From assembly GCF_046105845.1 (NCBI RefSeq), contig NZ_CP151004.1: DNA of 64,000 nt, one strand, 5' to 3'. Under the pieces are notes generated by a model. It did no database searches and was not told where the DNA came from. It saw only the letters and a list, made by a program, of their open reading frames with translations. Numbering within the stretch: the stretch's first letter is position 1; each line of letters begins with the position of its first letter. This DNA comes from Escherichia coli. GTDB lineage: Bacteria; Pseudomonadota; Gammaproteobacteria; Enterobacterales; Enterobacteriaceae. Below are positions 2,367 to 58,031 of the stretch, piece after piece. A program made the position numbers and the translations under genes.

Positions 2367-3257
2367 ATGGATGCAAAACAAACGCGGCAGGGCGTATTAC
2401 TCGCTCTTGCCGCTTATTTTATTTGGGGTATTGCGCCAGCGTACTTCAAGCTGATTTACTACGTGCCCGCCGATGAGATCCTGACGCATCGCGTGATCTG
2501 GTCGTTTTTCTTTATGGTGGTGCTGATGAGCATTTGCCGCCAGTGGTCCTATTTAAAAACGCTGATTCAGACGCCACAGAAAATTTTTATGCTGGCAGTC
2601 TCTGCCGTGCTGATTGGTGGCAACTGGCTACTGTTTATCTGGGCGGTGAACAATCACCATATGCTGGAAGCGAGCCTTGGTTACTTTATTAACCCGCTGG
2701 TGAACATTGTGCTGGGGATGATTTTCCTCGGCGAGCGATTCCGCCGGATGCAATGGCTGGCGGTGATTCTGGCAATATGTGGCGTGTTGGTTCAGTTGTG
2801 GACTTTTGGTTCACTGCCGATTATCGCGCTGGGGCTGGCGTTTAGTTTTGCCTTCTACGGCCTGGTACGCAAGAAGATTGCTGTTGAAGCGCAAACCGGC
2901 ATGTTAATCGAAACTATGTGGTTGCTGCCCGTGGCGGCGATTTACCTGTTTGCTATTGCCGACAGCTCAACCAGCCATATGGGGCAAAACCCGATGTCAC
3001 TGAATTTACTGCTGATCGCCGCCGGGATTGTCACTACCGTACCGCTGTTGTGTTTTACTGCGGCTGCGACACGCCTGCGTCTCTCAACGTTAGGCTTTTT
3101 TCAGTACATTGGCCCGACGCTGATGTTCCTGCTGGCTGTGACGTTTTATGGTGAAAAACCGGGTGCCGATAAGATGGTGACCTTCGCCTTTATTTGGGTG
3201 GCGCTGGCAATTTTTGTGATGGATGCGATTTATACGCAGCGTAGAACGTCCAAATAA
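2367..3257 (+). CDS. rarD: EamA/DMT-family inner-membrane transporter RarD
   Basis: 296-aa ORF, highly hydrophobic with multiple predicted TM segments; matches RarD length and synteny. Confidence 0.9.
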   Translation: MDAKQTRQGVLLALAAYFIWGIAPAYFKLIYYVPADEILTHRVIWSFFFMVVLMSICRQWSYLKTLIQTPQKIFMLAVSAVLIGGNWLLFIWAVNNHHMLEASLGYFINPLVNIVLGMIFLGERFRRMQWLAVILAICGVLVQLWTFGSLPIIALGLAFSFAFYGLVRKKIAVEAQTGMLIETMWLLPVAAIYLFAIADSSTSHMGQNPMSLNLLLIAAGIVTTVPLLCFTAAATRLRLSTLGFFQYIGPTLMFLLAVTFYGEKPGADKMVTFAFIWVALAIFVMDAIYTQRRTSK

Positions 3258-3291
3258 AAAATAAATATATTCTGAAAAAATATGCCGACTC

Positions 3292-3693
3292 TTGCATGAG
3301 AGTGGGCATATTGCCATGCTGACAGGAGACTCACATAAGAAAGGCAGAATTTCCAGACGTCGTTGTATATTTTCATTTGCTTTAATAAATTTCATTTTTG
3401 CCTTTCTTATTATCTTTTTTAACGATGGGGACGCAGGTTTTCTTGTTATTGTCTCTACCAACGCACTCCATTATCTCGTCATCAACATAAATTGCCAACG
3501 ACTCCGTGATAGTGGTTTCATATATATAAAAACTTATGTTTTTGGTACATTAGCAGTATATATCATCTCTATCATCACAATGATAGCCGAACATTTTGAT
3601 TGTTCAGGCAATGGTTCGATGATTTTTTTGATTTGTTATTTTTCCACTTTCAGTATGCTAATGCTTGCACCTACTGATTCATCAAAACAATAG
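3292..3693 (+). CDS. yigG: Small inner-membrane protein YigG; true start may be the internal Met at 3316
   Basis: 133-aa ORF, AT-rich with hydrophobic segments, lying between rarD and yigF as in E. coli. Confidence 0.6.
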
Positions 3694-3706
3694 TTATGGA
3701 GTATTT

Positions 3707-4087
3707 ATGAGTAAGGAATATATGAACGATGGTTCATTAAGTGAAAAATGGAAATACCGATTTAATTTTTATGATCAACATGGCTTTCCTGGATTCTGGG
3801 GGGCAACACCAGAATATAAAGCAGCATTTAAAACATTAAAAGTAAGACAACGATTAACTATTCAAATGAATTTCATTGCTTTCTTCTGTTCCTGGATCTA
3901 TTTATTTGTTCTGGGATTATGGAAAAAAGCAATTATAGTTCTATTACTTGGCATTCTATCTCTATTTGTTGGTGCACTAATTGGCGTTAACATTCTGGGA
4001 ATTGCCGTAGCAGCCTATGTTGCTGTTAACACGAACAAATGGTTTTATGAGAAAGAGGTAAAAGGGTTAAATACCTGGAGCCTTTGA
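3707..4087 (+). CDS. yigF: Small inner-membrane protein YigF (DUF2628-like)
   Basis: ORF 3665..4087; internal ATG at 3707 (MSKEYMNDGSLSEKWKYRF..., 126 aa) is preceded by a GGAG Shine-Dalgarno at 3698-3701. Two hydrophobic helices. Confidence 0.65.
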   Translation: MSKEYMNDGSLSEKWKYRFNFYDQHGFPGFWGATPEYKAAFKTLKVRQRLTIQMNFIAFFCSWIYLFVLGLWKKAIIVLLLGILSLFVGALIGVNILGIAVAAYVAVNTNKWFYEKEVKGLNTWSL

Positions 4088-4093
4088 ATAACA

Positions 4094-4129
4094 GGTGGCT
4101 TAGCCAGGCTAAGCCACCGCCTTCTTTTT
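4094..4129. terminator. Bidirectional rho-independent terminator between the convergent yigF and corA genes
   Basis: Inverted repeat GGTGGCTTAGCC / GGCTAAGCCACC followed by CTTCTTTTT. Confidence 0.55.
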
Positions 4130-5078
4130 ACAGCCAGTTCTTGCGCTTAAAGTACAGATACGGTGCCAGGCCCGCGAGGATCATAAAGATAATCGCGCCA
4201 GGGTAGCCGAAACTCCACTTCAGTTCCGGCATAAACTCAAAGTTCATCCCGTAGCTGGAAGCAACCAGCGTTGGCGGCAGGAACACGACGGATACCACCG
4301 AGAAGATTTTGATGATGCGGTTCTGCTCGATGTTGATAAAGCCCATCGCCGCCTGCATCAGGAAGTTCACCTTCTGGAACAGAGATTCGTTATGCGGCAG
4401 CAGGGATTCGATATCTCGCAGGATTTCACGCGCCTGCTCCAGCTGCCCGCCCGGTAAACGCGCCTTACGCACCAGGAAGTTGAGCGCACGCTGGGTATCC
4501 ATCAGACACAGGCGAACTTTCCAGCCGATATCTTCCAGTTCCGCCAGCGTGGAGAGCGCCTCGTCGTACTCATCGCCCTGATGCCCTTCCATAATTACCC
4601 GGCTCAACTGCTCCAGGTCGCTGTAGATATTTTCAATTTCATCTGCCAACTGTTCGATTTTGGTTTCGAACAGATCCAGCAGCAGCTCGTAGGCGTTACC
4701 GTCCACCATTGACTGGCTACGGGCACGCATACGATACAGACGGAATGCAGGCAGTTCACGCTCACGCAGAGTAAACAGACGACCATCACGGATGGTAAAT
4801 GCCACAGTGGAGTTACCGGCGTGATCTTCCGCATCTTCAAAGAAGAAGAAGGAGTGAATATGCAGGCCGTCATCGTCTTCAAAGAAACGTGCCGATGCTT
4901 CGATGTCTTCCAGTTCCGGGCGGGTTGCCAGGCTCTGACCAAGTTCAGATTGTACGCGCAGTCGCTCGTCGTCGTCCGGTTCGACAAGATCAATCCATAC
5001 TGCATTTACAAGGGGTTGTGACTCTTCGACTTCCAGCCGGGTCAGTCGGTTATTTTCCAGTTGAAATGCGCTCAGCAT
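4128..5078 (-). CDS. corA: Magnesium/cobalt transport protein CorA
   Basis: ORF 4128..5093; internal ATG at 5076-5078 gives the 316-aa protein [16 protein letters not shown]..., with the GMNF motif and two C-terminal TM helices. Confidence 0.95.
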
Positions 5079-16241: not shown

Positions 16242-16627
16242 GACGTATCGCCTGATTTGCTACCCGTCATGACTGTGATTCCGCCAACATCAACGGTAAC
16301 ACGCGGCATTCGGGATATTTCGTATGTCAAAGGTAACCGTTACCACTTTTCGCGCCTGGTTTTTTTAGTTTCACGACGAAAAAATGGTCTAAAACGTGAT
16401 CAATTTAACACCTTGCTGATTGACCGTAAAGAAAGATGCGCTACATACAAGTGTAGCACCGTTTATTCTCTGTAAATTCCTTATTACGACGGCGTGAAAC
16501 GCCTGTCAGGATCCACTGCCAGACCTCATTTTACGGTTTGCGCAGGCGTCTACGTTTCACCACAACACTGACATCGCTCTGGCAAGGATGTTAGGATGGA
16601 CCACGGATGATAATGACGGTAACAAGC

Positions 16628-18327: not shown

Positions 18328-19527
18328 ATGACGGAACAAGAAAAAACCTCCGCCGTGGTTGAAGAGACCAGGGAGGCCGTGGACACCACGTCACAACCTG
18401 TCGCAACAGAAAAAAAGAGTAAGAACAATACCGCATTGATTCTCAGCGCGGTGGCTATCGCTATTGCTCTGGCGGCGGGCGTCGGTTTGTATGGCTGGGG
18501 TAAACAACAGGCCGTCAATCAGACCGCCACCAGCGATGCCCTGGCTAACCAACTTACGGCACTGCAAAAAGCCCAGGAGAGCCAAAAAGCCGAGCTGGAA
18601 GGCATTATCAAGCAACAAGCTGTACAGCTTGAGCAGGCGAATCGTCAGCAAGAAACGCTGGCAAAACAGCTGGATGAAGTCCAACAAAAGGTCGCGACTA
18701 TTTCCGGCAGCGATGCTAAAACCTGGCTGCTGGCTCAGGCTGATTTCCTGGTGAAACTCGCCGGACGGAAGCTGTGGAGCGATCAGGACGTCACGACCGC
18801 TGCAGCGTTGCTGAAAAGTGCAGACGCCAGCCTGGCGGATATGAATGACCCGAGTCTGATTACCGTTCGTCGGGCAATTACCGATGATATCGCCAGCCTT
18901 TCTGCGGTATCGCAGGTGGATTATGACGGCATCATCCTTAAGCTTAATCAGCTTTCAAATCAGGTAGATAACCTGCGTCTGGCTGATAATGACAGCGATG
19001 GTTCGCCGATGGATTCCGACGGTGAAGAGCTTTCCAGTTCCATCAGCGAATGGCGTATCAATCTGCAAAAAAGCTGGCAGAACTTTATGGACAACTTCAT
19101 TACGATTCGCCGTCGTGATGACACCGCCGTACCACTGTTAGCGCCGAATCAGGATATCTATCTGCGCGAAAATATTCGCTCCCGCCTGCTGGTCGCGGCA
19201 CAAGCCGTACCGCGTCATCAGGAAGAGACTTATCGCCAGGCGCTGGAGAATGTCTCCACTTGGGTACGTGCTTACTACGATACTGATGATGCCACCACCA
19301 AAGCGTTCCTCGACGAGGTGGACCAGTTAAGCCAGCAAAATATCTCGATGGATCTCCCGGAAACCCTGCAAAGCCAGGCGATGCTGGAAAAACTGATGCA
19401 GACTCGCGTGCGTAACCTGCTGGCACAACCGGCAGCGGGGACAACGGAAGCTAAACCTGCACCTGCACCTGCACCTGCACCTGCACCGCAAGCTGATACT
19501 CCGGCAGCCGCGCCGCAAGGAGAATAA
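18328..19527 (+). CDS. hemX: HemX (inner-membrane protein; uroporphyrinogen-III methyltransferase-like annotation)
   Basis: 399-aa ORF with a single N-terminal TM segment, coiled-coil region and a Pro-Ala-rich C-terminus. Confidence 0.9.
19456..19485 (+). repeat. Perfect tandem hexanucleotide repeat (CCTGCA)x5 inside hemX, encoding (Pro-Ala)5
   Basis: Read directly: aaa CCTGCA CCTGCA CCTGCA CCTGCA CCTGCA ccg caa. Confidence 0.9.
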
Positions 19528-19529
19528 CC

Positions 19530-20726
19530 ATGCTAAAAGTGTTATTGCTCTTTGTGTTGCTGATTGCGGGGATAGTGGTTGGCCCGATGATTGCCGGACA
19601 CCAGGGTTACGTGCTGATCCAGACCGACAACTACAATATTGAAACCAGCGTCACTGGCCTGGCGATTATTTTGATTCTGGCAATGGTAGTGCTGTTTGCC
19701 ATTGAGTGGCTACTGCGGCGGATCTTCCGCACAGGCGCACACACCCGTGGGTGGTTTGTCGGACGTAAGCGTCGCCGTGCGCGTAAGCAGACCGAACAGG
19801 CGCTGCTGAAACTAGCGGAAGGCGATTATCAGCAAGTTGAAAAGCTGATGGCGAAAAATGCCGATCACGCGGAACAACCGGTGGTGAACTATTTGCTGGC
19901 TGCCGAAGCCGCGCAACAACGTGGTGATGAAGCACGCGCCAACCAACATCTGGAACGCGCAGCGGAGCTGGCCGGCAATGACACCATTCCGGTAGAAATC
20001 ACCCGTGTACGTCTGCAACTGGCCCGTAATGAAAACCATGCTGCACGCCACGGCGTGGATAAGCTGCTGGAAGTTACGCCACGCCATCCAGAAGTATTAC
20101 GTCTGGCGGAACAGGCGTATATCCGCACAGGTGCATGGAGTTCGCTGCTGGATATCATCCCATCAATGGCGAAAGCCCATGTTGGTGATGAAGAACATCG
20201 TGCAATGCTGGAACAACAGGCATGGATTGGCCTGATGGATCAGGCGCGTGCCGATAACGGTAGCGAAGGTTTGCGTAACTGGTGGAAAAACCAAAGCCGG
20301 AAAACGCGTCATCAGGTGGCGTTGCAGGTGGCAATGGCGGAACATCTTATTGAATGTGACGATCATGATACTGCCCAGCAAATTATCATCGACGGCCTGA
20401 AACGCCAGTATGACGATCGCCTACTGCTGCCGATCCCGCGTCTGAAAACCAATAACCCGGAACAGCTGGAAAAAGTGCTGCGCCAACAGATCAAAAACGT
20501 GGGCGATCGCCCGCTGTTGTGGAGCACACTGGGTCAGTCGCTGATGAAGCACGGAGAATGGCAGGAAGCATCGCTCGCCTTCCGCGCAGCGCTGAAACAA
20601 CGTCCGGACGCCTACGATTACGCATGGCTTGCCGACGCGCTGGACAGACTGCACAAACCAGAAGAAGCTGCAGCGATGCGCCGCGACGGTTTGATGTTAA
20701 CGTTGCAGAACAACCCGCCACAGTAG
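19530..20726 (+). CDS. hemY: HemY (TPR-containing inner-membrane protein)
   Basis: 398-aa ORF starting 3 nt after the hemX stop; N-terminal TM helices. Confidence 0.9.
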   Translation: MLKVLLLFVLLIAGIVVGPMIAGHQGYVLIQTDNYNIETSVTGLAIILILAMVVLFAIEWLLRRIFRTGAHTRGWFVGRKRRRARKQTEQALLKLAEGDYQQVEKLMAKNADHAEQPVVNYLLAAEAAQQRGDEARANQHLERAAELAGNDTIPVEITRVRLQLARNENHAARHGVDKLLEVTPRHPEVLRLAEQAYIRTGAWSSLLDIIPSMAKAHVGDEEHRAMLEQQAWIGLMDQARADNGSEGLRNWWKNQSRKTRHQVALQVAMAEHLIECDDHDTAQQIIIDGLKRQYDDRLLLPIPRLKTNNPEQLEKVLRQQIKNVGDRPLLWSTLGQSLMKHGEWQEASLAFRAALKQRPDAYDYAWLADALDRLHKPEEAAAMRRDGLMLTLQNNPPQ

Positions 20727-20773: not shown

Positions 20774-20980
20774 AAAAAAACGCCTGCTCTTATTACGGAG
20801 CAGGCGTTAAAACAGGTCTGTATGACAACAAGTGGGTGCTTCACTCAACGTTGTGTCCATGGTGTCTGATGAGGCATAAGCGACATCTGTCAGTGGACGA
20901 TAAGCACCGTAAACGGCTCTGCGTCATTCCGGAGTTTATGAGGCACTAAGGCGAACATAAGAGATGGAATGAGCATCTAC
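20774..20980 (-). ncRNA. glmZ: Small regulatory RNA GlmZ (SraJ/RyiA)
   Basis: Minus-strand sequence GTAGATGCTCATTCCATCTCTTATGTTCGCC...CCTGCTCCGTAATAAGAGCAGGCGTTTTTTT ends in a canonical intrinsic terminator. glmZ is known to lie in the hemY-aslA intergenic region, antisense to both. Confidence 0.8.
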
Positions 20981-21404
20981 TCGTTTATTATGCCACAGAG
21001 AACCGGGAAATAACATCCCTTAACACTTGTTATGAGATAATTCTGTAATCCTCTTTGCTTCCTGAGTAATAACTTCCTGAGTGAATATTTCTCCTGCGCA
21101 CGATTCTACACATATATATAATGAATAATAAAAGTCATTCAATTAATAACATATATATTAATTGCCGTTAAAACTAAAAACAGCATCAATAATCAACGCG
21201 ATATAACATCACCGCCTTACATATCACCTGCGCCAGAGGTAGGATTGAAAACGCTCTCCTGATTTTCCAATTCATTTTCTGGATAAATAAATAATTTATT
21301 TTTATCACTATTATTTATGCAATCATCCTGTCAGGGAGAGGGATCTCAATTATCAATGCTTAATTACGTCAACATTTTGACGACATGAAACCGGAGCATT
21401 TTGC

Positions 21405-23060
21405 ATGGAATTTTCGTTTTCACCCAAACTTCTTGTTGTGGCTGTCGCCGCCGCTCTTCCACTCATGGCCAACGCAGCAGATACCCCGTCAACCGCCACC
21501 GCACGCAAAGGCTTTGCCGGATACGATCACCCAAACCAGTATCTGGTTAAACCGGCGACCACTATTGCCGACAACATGATGCCGGTGATGCAGCATCCTG
21601 CACAAGACAAAGAAACCCAGCAGAAGCTGGCAGAACTTGAGAAAAAAACCGGTAAGAAACCGAACGTGGTTGTTTTCTTGCTGGATGATGTGGGCTGGAT
21701 GGATGTTGGCTTTAACGGCGGCGGCGTGGCGGTGGGTAACCCTACACCAGATATCGACGCCGTTGCCAGCCAGGGGCTGATTTTAACTTCGGCGTATTCT
21801 CAACCGAGTTCTTCCCCAACCCGCGCCACGATTCTTACCGGGCAATACTCCATCCACCACGGCATTCTGATGCCGCCAATGTACGGGCAACCGGGCGGTC
21901 TGCAAGGGTTAACCACTCTGCCGCAGTTGCTGCACGATCAGGGCTACGTCACTCAGGCCATCGGGAAATGGCATATGGGGGAAAACAAAGAGTCGCAGCC
22001 GCAGAACGTTGGCTTTGATGATTTCCGCGGTTTTAACTCGGTATCCGATATGTATACCGAATGGCGTGATGTTCACGTCAACCCGGAAGTCGCCCTGAGC
22101 CCGGATCGTTCTGAATACATCCAAAAACTGCCGTTCAGCAAAGATGACGTTCATGCCGTGCGCGGCGGTGAACAGGAAGCCATTGCCGACATTACGCCGA
22201 AATATATGGAAGACCTGGATCAACGCTGGATGGAATATGGCGTTAAGTTCCTCGACAAGATGGCGAAGAGCGATAAGCCTTTCTTCCTCTACTACGGCAC
22301 TCGCGGCTGTCACTTCGATAACTACCCAAATGCGAAATATGCGGGTAGCTCTCCGGCGCGCACCTCTTACGGCGACTGCATGGTGGAGATGAACGATATC
22401 TTCGCCAATCTGTATAAAGCACTGGAGAAAAACGGTCAGCTTGATAACACGCTGATTGTGTTCACCTCTGATAACGGTCCGGAAGCCGAAGTTCCGCCGC
22501 ACGGTCGCACACCGTTCCGCGGTGCGAAAGGTTCTACATGGGAAGGCGGCGTTCGTGTGCCAACCTTCGTTTACTGGAAAGGCATGATCCAACCGCGTAA
22601 ATCTGACGGTATTGTCGATCTGGCGGATCTCTTCCCAACCGCGCTGGATCTGGCGGGGCATCCTGGAGCGAAAGTGGCGAATTTAGTGCCGAAAACCACC
22701 TTTATCGATGGTGTGGACCAGACATCCTTCTTCCTGGGAACAAATGGTCAGTCTAACCGTAAGGCCGAGCACTACTTCCTCAACGGCAAACTTTCTGCTG
22801 TGCGTATGGATGAGTTCAAGTATCACGTCCTGATCCAGCAACCGTACGCGTATACCCAGAGCGGGTATCAGGGTGGATTCACCGGTACAGTAATGCAAAC
22901 GGCGGGATCGTCGGTGTTTAACCTGTACACCGATCCGCAGGAAAGCGACTCCATCGGCGTGCGCCATATCCCAATGGGTGTACCGCTACAGACCGAAATG
23001 CATGCGTATATGGAGATCCTGAAAAAATATCCACCACGCGCGCAGATTAAATCTGATTAA
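21405..23060 (+). CDS. aslA: Arylsulfatase-family (putative sulfatase) periplasmic protein
   Basis: 551-aa ORF with signal peptide [24 protein letters not shown] and sulfatase-type motifs (LLDDVGWMD; [11 protein letters not shown] as the C/S-x-P-x-R FGly site with Ser). Confidence 0.9.
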
Positions 23061-23136: not shown

Positions 23137-23162
23137 AGGCGGCCACAAAATGGCCGCTTTTT
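23137..23162 (+). terminator. Intrinsic terminator downstream of aslA
   Basis: GGCGGCCA-CAAAA-TGGCCGC hairpin followed by TTTTTT. Confidence 0.55.
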
Positions 23163-24397
23163 TACTTATTCACCACCATCAAATGCGCCTGCATAATGTC
23201 GCTGGCCGGACGACCGTGCGCCAGCAAATCAGCCATTGCTTTAAGATATGGCGGTAGATGGCGGAAATAACGCTGATACCCGGCACACAAATAATTCAGC
23301 CCAGGTTTGCCGCTGGCATCGAGCATAAAGCGGTGTTTCGGACAGCCTCCCCAGCACGCTTTTAACACGTTGCAACTGCGACACTGCGCCGGTAACTGCT
23401 TAAATTTATCTTCACCAAACACCTGCTGTTGCGGGGAGTCTACCATTTCTGCAATTGTCTGCTGAAGCATATTCCCCAGTCGATATTGCGGATAAACATA
23501 GTGATCGCAGGCGTAAACGTCGCCGTTGTGTTCAACAATCACCGAGCGCCCACAGGTTGGCTGATGATGGCAAACCGCTCCTGGCGCACCGACAAAATTG
23601 GCAAACGCCCATTCGATATTCATCACGAAAATCTTGCCGACGTCGCGTTTGATCCAGTGGTCGAATATCGCCACCAAAAATTCACCGAACTCCTCGGGGT
23701 GTACCGACCATTCCGTCAGTTTGCCCTGAATATCGCCGGGAGCATGTAGCTTAAGTCCAGCATGAACAGCCGTTTCATCAGCCAGGCGTTCGACCACAGG
23801 AATAAACTGGATAAACTCAACGCCTGCATCACACAGAAAATCATAGATTTGCAAAGGTTGTAACGCACAGGTGCGATTAACGCAGACCAGCACGTTATAG
23901 TCGACATGATGTTTTTGCAGGAGCATCAGGGCACGCATCACCAGCTTATGCGTTGGTCTGCCGCCTTTGGTCACGCGATATTGATTGTGGATCTCAGCCG
24001 GACCATCCAGCGATAACCCAACAAGAAAATGATTTTCTGCCAGAAATGCACACCATTCGTCATCAAGCAGCACGCCATTAGTCTGGAAGCTGTTACTTAT
24101 CTTCCTGCCAGCACCATATTTCGCCTGTAGCGCCACGGCACGGCGGTAAAAATCCAGCCCGAGTAACGTTGGTTCGCCACCCTGCCAGGTAAAAGCCACT
24201 TCGTTTTGGGTTTCGCTGGCAGCGATATAGTGACGGACATACGCTTCCAGCGTGTCATCGTCCATATGCGTGACTGGCTTTTCGCTGTAAAGGGATTGTT
24301 TTTCGAGATAAAAACAGTAGTCACAGTTCAGATTACAATCGGAACCGCTCGGTTTCGCCATCACATGAAAAGCACGCGTTGGAACCTGTTGCAGCAT
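23162..24397 (-). CDS. aslB: Anaerobic sulfatase-maturating enzyme homolog (radical SAM)
   Basis: ORF 23162..24427; ATG at 24395-24397 gives the 411-aa protein MLQQVPTRAFHVMAKPSGSDCNLNCDYCFY... with the CxxxCxxC radical-SAM motif. Confidence 0.9.
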   Translation of the reverse strand: MLQQVPTRAFHVMAKPSGSDCNLNCDYCFYLEKQSLYSEKPVTHMDDDTLEAYVRHYIAASETQNEVAFTWQGGEPTLLGLDFYRRAVALQAKYGAGRKISNSFQTNGVLLDDEWCAFLAENHFLVGLSLDGPAEIHNQYRVTKGGRPTHKLVMRALMLLQKHHVDYNVLVCVNRTCALQPLQIYDFLCDAGVEFIQFIPVVERLADETAVHAGLKLHAPGDIQGKLTEWSVHPEEFGEFLVAIFDHWIKRDVGKIFVMNIEWAFANFVGAPGAVCHHQPTCGRSVIVEHNGDVYACDHYVYPQYRLGNMLQQTIAEMVDSPQQQVFGEDKFKQLPAQCRSCNVLKACWGGCPKHRFMLDASGKPGLNYLCAGYQRYFRHLPPYLKAMADLLAHGRPASDIMQAHLMVVNK

Positions 24398-39438: not shown

Positions 39439-39626
39439 AATGCATGCTCTCAGAGAAAATTATTAGCAGAAGTATAACCACGAAGACCTTTATTCAGAAG
39501 GGAAAGTCCGTTCCGAACCCACCAGTCCTGTGCAAAAATTAACCATTTGATATGCAAATTGCATAACACACCAGCAAAATCCAGGAATTTTCCTAACATT
39601 GCCAGCGCGGCATTAAGATTACAGAT

Positions 39627-39665
39627 ATAAAAGCAAAACGCCACGTAAACACGTGGCGTTTTTGG
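39627..39665 (-). terminator. Intrinsic terminator just downstream of rho
   Basis: Minus strand reads AAAAACGCCACGTG-TTTA-CGTGGCGTTTTGCTTTT about 15 bp after the rho stop. Confidence 0.55.
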
Positions 39666-39677
39666 CATAAGACAAAT

Positions 39678-40937
39678 TTATGAGCGTTTCATCATTTCGA
39701 AGAAATCGTCATTGGTCTTGGTCATTGCCAGTTTATTAATGAGGAATTCCATTGCATCGATTTCGCCCATCGGGTGAATGATTTTGCGCAGGATCCACAT
39801 TTTCTGCAGTTCTTCCTGAGTAGTGAGCAGCTCTTCTTTACGGGTACCGGAACGGTTGTAGTCGATTGCCGGGAAGACGCGTTTTTCAGCGATCTTACGA
39901 GAGAGGTGCAGTTCCATGTTGCCTGTACCTTTAAACTCTTCGTAGATAACTTCGTCCATCTTGGAACCGGTATCGATAAGCGCGGTAGCGATGATGGTCA
40001 GGCTGCCGCCCTCTTCCACGTTACGCGCCGCACCGAAGAAGCGTTTCGGACGATGCAGGGCGTTGGCATCCACACCACCGGTCAGCACTTTACCTGACGC
40101 CGGAACAACGGTGTTGTAAGCGCGCGCCAGACGAGTGATGGAGTCGAGCAGGATGATAACGTCTTTCTTGTGCTCAACCAGGCGTTTCGCCTTCTCGATC
40201 ACCATTTCCGCAACCTGAACGTGGCGAGATGCGGGTTCGTCAAAGGTAGAAGCAACAACTTCACCTTTTACCAGACGCTGCATCTCGGTTACTTCTTCCG
40301 GACGTTCGTCGATCAGCAGAACCATCAGCACACAATCCGGGTGGTTGTAAGCAATGCTCTGAGCAATGTTCTGCAGCAGCATGGTTTTACCGGCTTTCGG
40401 CGGTGCCACAATCAGACCACGCTGACCACGACCGATAGGTGATGCCAGATCCAGTACGCGAGCGGTTAAATCTTCAGTAGAACCGTTACCACGTTCCATA
40501 CGCAGACGAGAGTTTGCGTGCAGCGGGGTTAAGTTCTCAAAGAGGATTTTGTTGCGGGCGTTTTCAGGTTTGTCGAAGTTAACTTCGTTAACTTTCAGCA
40601 GCGCAAAATAGCGTTCACCTTCTTTCGGCGGGCGAATCTTACCAGAGATGGTATCACCAGTGCGGAGGTTGAAACGGCGGATTTGGCTAGGGGAAACGTA
40701 GATGTCATCAGGACCGGCGAGGTAGGAGCTGTCTGCGGAACGGAGGAAACCAAATCCATCCTGCAATATCTCCAGTACACCATCACCAAAGATATCTTCG
40801 CCACTCTTTGCGTGCTGCTTCAGGATGGCAAAAATAATGTCCTGCTTACGCATACGAGCCAGGTTTTCCAGCCCCATATTTTCGCCGAGAGTGATCAGCT
40901 CAGAAACCGGCGTATTCTTTAATTCGGTAAGATTCAT
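39678..40937 (-). CDS. rho: Transcription termination factor Rho
   Basis: ORF 39678..41009; internal ATG 24 codons in gives the 419-aa protein [44 protein letters not shown]... Confidence 0.95.
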
Positions 40938-56510: not shown

Positions 56511-58031
56511 ATGTCACTGTCAATTGTTCATACCCGCGCAGCCCTGGGAGTAAATGCGCCCCCAATCACTGTTGAGGTACATATCAGTAAAGGTCTACCC
56601 GGCTTAACGATGGTGGGCTTACCAGAAACAACGGTAAAAGAAGCTCGCGATCGCGTGCGCAGCGCCATTATCAATAGCGGATATGAATATCCGGCGAAAA
56701 AAATCACCATCAACCTTGCTCCAGCCGATCTGCCAAAAGAAGGGGGACGATATGATTTACCTATCGCCATTGCGTTGCTGGCAGCCTCAGAACAGCTTAC
56801 AGCCAATAAGTTAGATGAATATGAATTAGTCGGAGAACTGGCGCTTACAGGCGCTCTGCGTGGCGTTCCCGGCGCAATCTCCAGTGCAACTGAAGCCATT
56901 AAGTCGGGCAGAAAAATTATCGTCGCGAAAGATAACGAGGATGAAGTGGGGCTAATTAACGGTGAAGGATGCCTGATAGCCGATCATCTGCAGGCTGTCT
57001 GTGCGTTTCTGGAGGGTAAGCACGCTCTCGAACGCCCGAAACCAACTGATGCAGTATCCCGGGCGCTACAACATGATCTCAGTGATGTTGTCGGTCAGGA
57101 GCAAGGAAAGCGAGGGCTGGAAATTACCGCCGCTGGCGGGCACAACCTTTTACTGATTGGGCCGCCGGGAACAGGTAAAACAATGCTCGCCAGCCGTATT
57201 AATGGCCTGTTGCCAGATTTAAGCAATGAAGAGGCACTGGAGAGCGCTGCGATATTAAGTCTGGTAAATGCTGAATCAGTACAAAAACAATGGCGGCAGC
57301 GCCCGTTCCGCTCACCTCATCACAGTGCGTCGTTAACTGCGATGGTGGGCGGTGGTGCAATTCCAGGGCCAGGTGAAATTTCGCTGGCGCATAACGGCGT
57401 GCTTTTTCTTGATGAGTTACCTGAATTTGAACGGCGTACACTGGATGCCTTGCGAGAGCCGATTGAATCCGGGCAGATCCATCTTTCACGCACACGAGCA
57501 AAAATAACCTATCCAGCCCGTTTCCAGCTTGTCGCGGCGATGAATCCCAGCCCTACCGGACATTATCAGGGAAACCATAACCGCTGCACACCAGAACAGA
57601 CATTACGTTATCTCAACCGGCTCTCGGGGCCCTTTCTCGACCGCTTCGATCTCTCACTGGAGATCCCATTACCGCCCCCCGGCATTTTGAGTAAAACGGT
57701 AGTGCCGGGAGAAAACAGCACCACCGTTAAACAACGTGTAATGGCCGCCAGAGAGCGCCAATTTAAGCGGCAGAATAAACTGAATGCCTGGCTGGATAAT
57801 CCGGAAATACGCCAATTCTGCAAACTTGAGAGCGAAGATGCGATGTGGTTGGAAGGAACACTGATCCATCTGGGGTTATCGATTCGTGCCTGGCAGCGGT
57901 TACTGAAAGTTGCACGAACCATTGCTGATATTGATCAGTCCGACATTATCACACGTCAGCATTTGCAGGAGGCAGTTAGCTATCGTGCCATTGACCGTTT
58001 GCTCATCCATCTGCAAAAACTACTGACATAA
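56511..58031 (+). CDS. comM: Mg-chelatase-like AAA+ ATPase ComM/YifB
   Basis: ORF 56481..58031; ATG at 56511 preceded by AGGAGG gives the 506-aa protein MSLSIVHTRAALGVNAPPITVEV... with Walker A (GPPGTGKT). Confidence 0.9.
   Translation: MSLSIVHTRAALGVNAPPITVEVHISKGLPGLTMVGLPETTVKEARDRVRSAIINSGYEYPAKKITINLAPADLPKEGGRYDLPIAIALLAASEQLTANKLDEYELVGELALTGALRGVPGAISSATEAIKSGRKIIVAKDNEDEVGLINGEGCLIADHLQAVCAFLEGKHALERPKPTDAVSRALQHDLSDVVGQEQGKRGLEITAAGGHNLLLIGPPGTGKTMLASRINGLLPDLSNEEALESAAILSLVNAESVQKQWRQRPFRSPHHSASLTAMVGGGAIPGPGEISLAHNGVLFLDELPEFERRTLDALREPIESGQIHLSRTRAKITYPARFQLVAAMNPSPTGHYQGNHNRCTPEQTLRYLNRLSGPFLDRFDLSLEIPLPPPGILSKTVVPGENSTTVKQRVMAARERQFKRQNKLNAWLDNPEIRQFCKLESEDAMWLEGTLIHLGLSIRAWQRLLKVARTIADIDQSDIITRQHLQEAVSYRAIDRLLIHLQKLLT

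Follow-up and report, generated by a model that had tools for sequence, protein, structure and literature searches.

Regions silenced by H-NS and StpA, among them the bgl operon and the 'HNS'-flagged type-A spacers of genomic SELEX (PMC3946193), combine an AT-rich patch with a gene that is expressed at a low level. Type-A spacers, as described by Shimada et al. (2014), carry back-to-back promoters. In Yersinia and Salmonella the activating regions of the small RNA genes glmY and glmZ are of another kind, comprising a σ54 promoter, three GlrR sites and two IHF sites (PMC3045617). The spacer between glmZ and aslA of Escherichia coli has been met in both lines of work. It binds RpoD holoenzyme in genomic SELEX (aslA<>glmZ, 85.83 min; Shimada et al. 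2014, Table 1, PMC3946193), it is marked 'HNS' in the same table, meaning that it contains one of 987 H-NS SELEX sites, and it was studied from the side of glmZ by 5' deletions and point mutations (Göpel et al. 2011, PMC3045617). Binding of H-NS to this spacer and repression of aslA by H-NS and StpA are already known from genome-wide tables, never having been discussed gene by gene.

Here we analyse this spacer within a 64-kb stretch of E. coli DNA, referred to as the window. We consider it probable that the interval at 21060-21404 serves aslA as its regulatory region and leader, kept under H-NS/StpA silencing and lying beside a glmZ promoter that works independently, and that it is neither a control region of glmZ nor a repeat element. 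Two details are new: a well-supported candidate promoter of aslA (21216-21245) followed by a putative leader of about 150 nt, and the observation that what has been conserved with aslA from genus to genus is AT-richness and not sequence.

The AT-rich spacer upstream of aslA

The genes of the locus are listed in Table 1; aslA is followed by aslB on the minus strand and then by a tRNA cluster. The spacer between glmZ and aslA, 20981-21404, is 424 bp long, of which positions 80 to 424 make up the interval studied. The spacer of K-12 MG1655 (3,986,008-3,986,431) is of equal length and about 95% identical to that of the window, with no indels. In several sequenced strains the locus is 100% identical, and the spacer is found in 5,422 of 5,426 complete genomes. 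A search for Rfam families yielded none in the interval, the sole match at the locus being GlmZ.

Table 1. Coordinates of genes, promoters and other elements at the glmZ-aslA locus (window positions)
Feature	Position	Strand	Evidence or remark
hemX	18328-19527	+	gene order at the locus
hemY	19530-20726	+	gene order at the locus
glmZ small RNA gene	20774-20980	-	Rfam RF00083, 218.4 bits, full length; K-12 annotation b4456
glmZ σ70 core promoter, -1 to -40	20981-21020	-	mutagenesis in PMC3045617; hexamers read from sequence
Tandem duplication of a 15-bp unit (CTTCCTGAGTAATAA / CTTCCTGAGTGAATA)	21058-21087		repeat search; TRF score 53
AT-rich, TpA-rich DNA 5' of the candidate aslA promoter	21060-21215	+	30% GC; composition, published H-NS genomic-SELEX flag
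Conserved block AAAAACAGCATCAATAATCAAC	21176-21197	+	pi 0.13 in Escherichia; recognisable in Pseudocitrobacter
Candidate aslA σ70-type core promoter	21216-21245	+	-35 CTTACA 21216-21221, 18-bp spacer, -10 TAGGAT 21240-21245
Putative aslA 5' leader, about 153 nt, 33% GC	21252-21404	+	follows from the candidate promoter
5' arm (CGCTCTCCTGAT) of interrupted inverted repeat	21252-21263	+	RNAalifold; pairs with 21330-21342
TGGATAAATA, 8 of 10 positions as in the H-NS high-affinity motif TCGATAAATT	21280-21289	+	motif search
3' arm (GTCAGGGAGAGGG) of interrupted inverted repeat	21330-21342	+	RNAalifold; pairs with 21252-21263
Most conserved block of the putative leader (TCAGGGAGAGGGATCTCAATTATCAATGCTTAATTACGTC)	21331-21370	+	pi 0.03-0.06 vs 0.36 at neutral sites
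Small palindrome/hairpin CGTCAA-catt-TTGACG	21367-21382	+	directly 5' of the Shine-Dalgarno sequence; weak evidence
aslA Shine-Dalgarno GGAG	21393-21396	+	invariant in all genera compared
aslA, 551-aa arylsulfatase	21405-23060	+	ORF list; RefSeq annotation; NCBIfam arylsulfatase match

An earlier, sequence-only reading had singled out the DNA before aslA as extremely AT-rich, and a sliding-window analysis confirms it. The GC content of the interval is 33.0% compared to 52.4% for the window (67% vs 48% AT), a value as low as this is seen in only 0.7% of the 345-bp windows within the 64 kb, and the lowest GC of any 100 bp in the window, 21%, is found inside the interval, at 21107. Nearby intergenic regions are of ordinary composition (hemY-glmZ 53%, aslA-aslB 62%, upstream of aslB 48% GC). 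TpA steps account for 9.9% of the spacer as against 4.2% of the window, placing it among the top 0.2% of windows. Both AT runs quoted in that reading were located, at 21120-21164 and 21285-21319, and the aslA start codon does follow the interval, at 21405, behind its Shine-Dalgarno sequence. By composition, the part of the interval upstream of position 21216 is predicted to be the likeliest binding tract for H-NS and StpA.

Two further descriptions given by the sequence-only reading, that the region is laden with repeats and that it is curved, did not hold up. The longest exact direct repeat in the interval is 10 nt, a length that 13% of dinucleotide shuffles reach; the longest inverted repeat, 9 nt, is matched by 68% of the shuffles, and five 8-mers are repeated (2.5 ± 2.1 in shuffles). 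The sole true repeat is the 15-bp tandem duplication, which is present as a single copy in E. coli strain LR-60, so its copy number varies, and which lies in sequence that is weakly constrained in the genus (pi 0.25-0.38). With no excess of repeats and no Rfam family match beyond GlmZ, a repeat element of the REP/BIME, MITE or tandem-array type was rejected. Intrinsic curvature is an often-cited but not obligatory trait of H-NS-silenced promoter regions. We predicted it with the Bolshoy-Trifonov wedge model, using wedge parameters that are reportedly those of Bolshoy et al. 1991 and taking the end-to-end ratio as the measure; this is a model, distinct from a gel measurement, and in control sequences it returned a ratio of 0.35 for phased A6 tracts and of 0.995 for A6 tracts placed every 15 bp. 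The ratio of the spacer is 0.967 and that of its shuffles 0.84 ± 0.11, so in this model the spacer is the straighter; the sub-window with the strongest bend reaches just the 11th-19th percentile of the 64-kb window, and no 10-11 bp periodicity of AA/TT was found in the spacer. Given that the density of TpA steps is very high and that curvature is not predicted, the spacer would better be called 'AT-rich and flexible' than 'curved'.

Is this composition a property of the aslA gene, of glmZ, or of neither? A scan for AslA, one genome per species, gave aslA loci in Escherichia (5 species or lineages), Pseudocitrobacter, Kluyvera, Superficieibacter and a gut enterobacterium, all of which have glmZ 300-500 bp upstream of aslA, and in Salmonella enterica subsp. 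arizonae and a Citrobacter, where a maeB-like malic enzyme gene, not glmZ, takes that place. In every locus the 345 bp before aslA have a GC content of 27-36%, and aslA itself of 50-54%. The spacer cannot be aligned between genera except for the glmZ -10 hexamer and the aslA Shine-Dalgarno sequence and ATG, yet it is AT-rich in all of them, which indicates that base composition and not sequence has been kept. Since AT-richness is also present where glmZ is not the neighbour, it is aslA, and not glmZ, that the composition accompanies.

AT-richness might nonetheless be devoid of function, the product of mutational drift or the scar of horizontal acquisition of an aslAB module beside the tRNA cluster. 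In Escherichia, positions 21081-21120 evolve no more slowly than neutral sites (pi 0.40-0.54). Göpel et al. (PMC3045617) noted that the DNA upstream of glmZ differs between genera, and some strains tolerate indels or an IS1 insertion, the latter in strain FLI21 (NZ_CP139808.1), in which window positions ~21124-21272 are missing. Yet six genera, with aslA in two chromosomal settings, have kept AT-richness despite turnover of the sequence, next to intergenic regions of 48-62% GC and a gene whose own GC is ordinary. Overall diversity of the interval in Escherichia is lower than at neutral sites (pi 0.199 vs 0.358 at four-fold degenerate sites of aslA), and removal of H-NS and StpA changes aslA expression (PMC12460168). 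We regard an origin without function as very unlikely.

Independence of the glmZ promoter

That the interval abuts the glmZ promoter, as the sequence-only reading had it, is borne out by the position and minus-strand orientation of glmZ. The -10 hexamer, CATAAT, is the complement of 20987-20992 and is conserved across genera, and a -35-like ATGTTA hexamer can be read from the complementary strand at about 21011-21016. The further suggestion, that the two divergent genes share overlapping control elements, finds no support, given that the glmZ promoter lies outside the interval and that GlrR and σ54 sites are absent from it. In its strongest form this idea would make the interval regulatory DNA of glmZ, an active GlrR/IHF/σ54 enhancer or the remnant of one, as in Yersinia and Salmonella. 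The interval does extend from -80 to -424 of glmZ, and in other Enterobacteriaceae GlrR and IHF sites occupy the equivalent position (PMC3045617). In E. coli, however, 5' deletions have shown that DNA upstream of -40 (window positions above 21020) is dispensable, so that -40 to +1 suffices; GlrR gave no mobility shift with a glmZ fragment spanning -424 to +32, and glmZ is driven by one constitutive σ70 promoter, its expression being unaffected by ΔglrR or ΔrpoN (PMC3045617). The motifs are likewise missing: 20981-21404 contains no GlrR site (TGTC-N10-GACA, allowing up to 1 mismatch), and a search of the spacer for a σ54 -24/-12 element returned none that is credible, only matches with 2-3 mismatches that do not have the GG. 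In addition, AT-richness accompanies aslA even where glmZ is absent. An enhancer of glmZ, already refuted for the conditions tested, is therefore an extremely improbable account of the interval.

A candidate promoter and leader of aslA

To locate the aslA promoter, each aslA upstream region in a set of 18 enterobacterial sequences was scanned for σ70-like hexamer pairs. The pattern yTTACA-N18-TAnnAT occurs once in every glmZ-linked lineage (16 sequences, always with a spacing of 18), as CTTACA-N18-TAGGAT in Escherichia and Pseudocitrobacter and as TTTACA-N18-TA(A/C/G)(G/A/T)AT in Kluyvera and Superficieibacter. At the equivalent place Salmonella has TTTACA-N16-TATAGT and Citrobacter TTTACA-N15-TAGTAT. 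The distance from the candidate -10 to the ATG is 100-166 nt in all genera, the glmZ-linked lineages covering 100-159 nt, and no other promoter-like element is common to all the enterobacterial aslA upstream regions scanned. Among composition-matched 440-nt sequences, about 1.2% (0.012) would contain the strict pattern by chance. Within Escherichia pi is 0.000 for both hexamers, 0.283 for the 18 bp that separate them and 0.029 at 21241-21260; nor do CTTACA and TAGGAT vary among divergent E. coli strains. Invariant hexamers around a diverging spacer are the footprint expected of a core promoter, which makes this element a well-supported candidate for that of aslA, with transcription predicted to start at 21251-21253 (K-12 about 3,986,160, minus strand). 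The match to consensus is weak, 8 of 12 positions of TTGACA/TATAAT, including A2 and T6 of the -10, with a spacing of 18 bp at the upper end of the usual 16-18 bp, which would fit a low basal expression of aslA and perhaps a need for an activator. In this regard, the conserved block AAAAACAGCATCAATAATCAAC, located 19-40 bp upstream of the candidate -35, could possibly be an UP element or an activator site.

The promoters predicted for this spacer from genomic SELEX probably do not function as such. The aslA promoter proposed by Shimada et al., TTAACA-18-TGTAAT (21020-21049), has a -10 without its final T in E. albertii and in strain E69 and is absent outside Escherichia. On the minus strand, the -10 of TTGAGA-16-GATGAT (21349-21322) is not conserved in other Escherichia.

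If the conserved promoter-like element at 21216-21245 is the aslA promoter, the last 150 nt or so of the interval would be a transcribed leader, leaving about 155 bp of upstream DNA. The view of the sequence-only reading, in which all of the roughly 340 bp are upstream DNA, would then stand for those 155 bp and is doubtful for the remainder. Parts of the putative leader hardly vary within Escherichia. Could it limit aslA expression after initiation, acting in cis as a switch, a thermosensor or a Rho-dependent attenuator? Its most conserved block is more than neutrally constrained (Table 1), an interrupted inverted repeat and a hairpin just before the Shine-Dalgarno sequence can be drawn, the latter with one compensatory change, and the first 78 nt have a C:G ratio of 15:5. 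However, both arms of the inverted repeat are nearly invariant and show no covariation (7 Escherichia sequences), and because of this the helix is uninformative on structure. The hairpin reads GTCATCA-ttt-TGATGAC in K-12 and is kept in a shifted register in the window; a compensatory pair occurs in E. albertii and a mismatch in strain 272. The leader does not fold more stably than its shuffles (z = -0.88), 3 of 37 pairs show compensatory changes, and the covariation term of RNAalifold, computed on closely related sequences, is just -0.55 kcal/mol. No Rfam family matches the leader, whose sequence is not conserved between genera. Sequestration of the Shine-Dalgarno sequence by an upstream anti-SD seemed recurrent across genera but proved to be no better than in shuffled leaders (13 species). 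A regulatory RNA in the leader appears quite unlikely.

Short reading frames in the region were also discarded. Two minus-strand ORFs of 40 aa (21020-21142 and 21186-21308) are interrupted by stops or frameshifts in other Escherichia, a plus-strand ATG at 21317 is followed by TAA in K-12, and an ORF of 10 codons (21356-21388) is conserved as nucleotides, not as protein, its stop being lost in strain E69.

H-NS, StpA and the expression of aslA

Expression of aslA was taken from RNA-seq of MG1655 (Suppl. Table 1, Nature 2025, PMC12460168). In the wild type aslA counts are low (78-127). They are 116-181 in Δhns (log2FC +0.71, 1.6-fold, adjusted P 4.6e-4) and 62-82 in ΔstpA (log2FC -0.26, not significant), and rise to 561-659 in Δhns ΔstpA (log2FC +2.78, about 7-fold, adjusted P 6e-144). 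Thirty minutes of netropsin give 538-642 (log2FC +2.68, about 7-fold, adjusted P 1.4e-128). The low wild-type counts support an AT-rich control region of a poorly expressed gene, and silencing of the H-NS type fits both the SELEX flag (PMC3946193) and the derepression seen in Δhns ΔstpA and with netropsin. The sequence-only reading, which had seen in the interval H-NS-type silenced promoter DNA before a cryptic sulfatase gene, is supported in its main point.

Several observations sit less easily with silencing of the spacer by H-NS and StpA. Loss of hns alone has a small effect, and the published table flags aslA neither for horizontal transfer nor for an H-NS hairpin domain (PMC12460168). The candidate promoter is weak and differs from the one predicted by Shimada et al. 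Curvature is not predicted, and the sole match in the spacer to the H-NS nucleation motif, TGGATAAATA, agrees with TCGATAAATT at 8 of 10 positions, a level of agreement found 61 times in the window and 56 ± 8 times in shuffles. Given that TCGATAAATT-like matches occur at shuffle frequency, TGGATAAATA is weak evidence, and the nucleation motif was set aside as a candidate determinant.

A question arises, is the derepression of aslA direct? Loss of H-NS and StpA might induce an activator, for example through the GadE/RcsB cascade or RpoE-dependent factors, and this activator would in turn raise aslA. The neighbour aslB is a case in point, as it rises 12.9-fold in hns mutants by way of GadE and RcsB, both of them bound at its promoter (PMC2984483), and since its derepression is indirect, such a route is possible for aslA too. 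aslA is reported to be indirectly RpoE-dependent and inducible by LL-37 in E. coli K1 (PMC9147696), it is unflagged for a hairpin domain, and a weak promoter with an 18-bp spacer is what would be expected where transcription depends on an activator. Against this, H-NS selected the spacer itself in vitro (PMC3946193), netropsin, a compound that drives H-NS and StpA off AT-rich DNA, mimics the double mutant within 30 minutes, and the composition and TpA richness of the spacer agree with the preference of H-NS. Moreover, a requirement for an activator and direct silencing can coexist. On balance, an exclusively indirect route seems unlikely to us, if less so than the other alternatives considered here.

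Direct silencing by H-NS and StpA is our preferred reading, and the locus may be pictured as follows. The left 155 bp or so (21060-21215) is AT-rich and TpA-rich DNA, predicted to be essentially straight, and would lie 5' of a weak σ70-type promoter, CTTACA-N18-TAGGAT, from which transcription would begin near 21252, and the right 150 nt or so would form an AT-rich leader up to the GGAG and ATG of aslA. H-NS, with StpA as a backup, would bind the AT-rich patch and keep aslA transcription low; once both proteins are removed, or displaced by netropsin, aslA mRNA rises about 7-fold. On the left, at a distance of 40-80 bp, the divergent glmZ promoter acts independently and constitutively. Taken together, the weak but conserved promoter, whose 18-bp spacer is fixed, and the near-invariant leader blocks of Escherichia (the stem 21252-21263 / 21330-21342, the block 21331-21370 and the hairpin before the Shine-Dalgarno sequence) may even amount to a dedicated aslA switch, an idea that we hold to be rather improbable. 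If true, an activator or an RNA-level signal (host sulfated glycans, acid or envelope stress, for example) would counter H-NS/StpA silencing and so switch on a sulfatase that has been linked to the invasiveness of E. coli K1.

The significance of these findings beyond annotation is small. The locus does offer a clean example of base composition that is kept upstream of one gene across genera and chromosomal contexts. In addition, aslA is counted as virulence-associated in meningitis-causing E. coli K1, and a known promoter would help studies of its induction.

How does the locus compare with the systems described before? With the activating regions of glmY and glmZ in Yersinia and Salmonella it shares the position relative to glmZ and the AT-rich DNA 5' of a small RNA gene, whereas E. 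coli glmZ has one constitutive σ70 promoter, no binding of GlrR and no GlrR or σ54 motifs. Like a type-A spacer in the sense of Shimada et al. (2014), the 424 bp between glmZ and aslA serve two divergent transcription units and bind RpoD holoenzyme in vitro. The glmZ promoter and the candidate aslA promoter are, however, about 230 bp apart and do not overlap, and the promoters predicted by Shimada et al., TTAACA-18-TGTAAT for aslA and TTGAGA-17-GATGAT for glmZ, are unsupported by conservation and by mutagenesis, respectively. Regions silenced by H-NS and StpA differ from that of aslA in that its AT-rich patch is just about 0.4 kb long and its gene body is of normal GC, it carries no flag for horizontal transfer or a hairpin domain, and its DNA is not predicted to be intrinsically curved. 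It is nevertheless to these regions that the aslA spacer is similar in an AT-rich patch before a gene of low expression, in selection by H-NS in vitro, in an IS1 insertion found in one natural strain, and in a derepression that is strongest when both proteins are missing or netropsin is present.

Conservation and strain variation around glmZ and aslA

Beside aslA, a block of 40 nt in the inferred leader (21331-21370; TCAGGGAGAGGGATCTCAATTATCAATGCTTAATTACGTC) is nearly invariant among Escherichia species, with mean pairwise differences (pi) of 0.03-0.06 within the genus versus 0.36 at neutral sites, here the four-fold degenerate sites of aslA. Good conservation in Escherichia is likewise seen at 21011-21040 (pi 0.07-0.10), corresponding to -31 to -60 of glmZ, although plasmid-based deletion analysis showed that the glmZ promoter needs nothing upstream of -40 for its activity (PMC3045617).

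The glmZ-aslA spacer (20981-21404) falls into two haplogroups among E. coli genomes. The first, which has ABU 83972 and ST131-like strains among its members, comprises 891 genomes of at least 99% identity to the window, and the second, to which K-12 belongs, comprises 3,470 genomes of 90-95% identity, the differences being concentrated at 21091-21135 and 21207-21228. For E. coli core DNA, a divergence of ~5%, as found between the spacer haplogroups, is high. Strains also vary in the copy number of a 15-bp tandem duplication (21058-21087), of which E. coli LR-60 (locus L080) carries one copy, and in strain BE2-5 (locus L081) the 7-bp TCAATTA is duplicated near 21346-21352, inside the conserved leader block.

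Curved and AT-rich DNA elsewhere in the window

Across the 64 kb, intrinsic curvature is predicted to be strongest at ~39450-39700, in the rho-wecA intergenic region (end-to-end ratio 0.57-0.72, lower being more bent), which is likewise AT-rich (38% GC), and a second spot of strong predicted curvature lies near 16350-16370. Among long blocks of the window, the one at 3078-4197, spanning yigG and yigF, which lie between corA and rarD, is the most AT-rich (30% GC). The bulk of it is found in one piece in no more than about half of E. coli genomes, so the segment appears to be variable, possibly acquired. A further AT-rich island at 55978-56592 has 36% GC and falls to 22% in its lowest 100 bp, at 56229; judged by its position, it may be the yifB-ilvL spacer, which H-NS genomic SELEX by Shimada et al. 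also marked as an H-NS site (PMC3946193).

H-NS and the asl pair

In an hns mutant, aslB is derepressed 12.9-fold via RcsB/GadE, both of which bind the aslB promoter, and aslB has a minor role in glutamate-dependent acid resistance (PMC2984483). Therefore both members of the asl pair, aslA and aslB, respond to loss of H-NS, and they do so from separate promoters.

Insertions on either side of glmZ

The distance from the end of hemY to the glmZ 3' end is 47 bp in the window, ~310 bp in E. whittamii and ~640 bp in Escherichia sp. E1V33, extra DNA being inserted between the two genes in the latter two. Within the glmZ-aslA spacer, one complete genome, E. coli FLI21 (NZ_CP139808.1), carries an IS1 element in place of ~150 bp of spacer, and the lost DNA includes the inferred aslA promoter. 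Cryptic operons, bgl for example, are classically activated when an IS element inserts into their AT-rich, silenced promoter region.

Positions of aslB and of the insertions (L numbers denote loci from other genomes compared with the window)
Feature	Position	Strand	Genome or window equivalent
aslB	23162-24397	minus	
Enlarged hemY-glmZ gap	L003 and L005		Escherichia sp. E1V33, E. whittamii
IS1 insertion, FLI21	L083 2560-3648		window ~21124-21272
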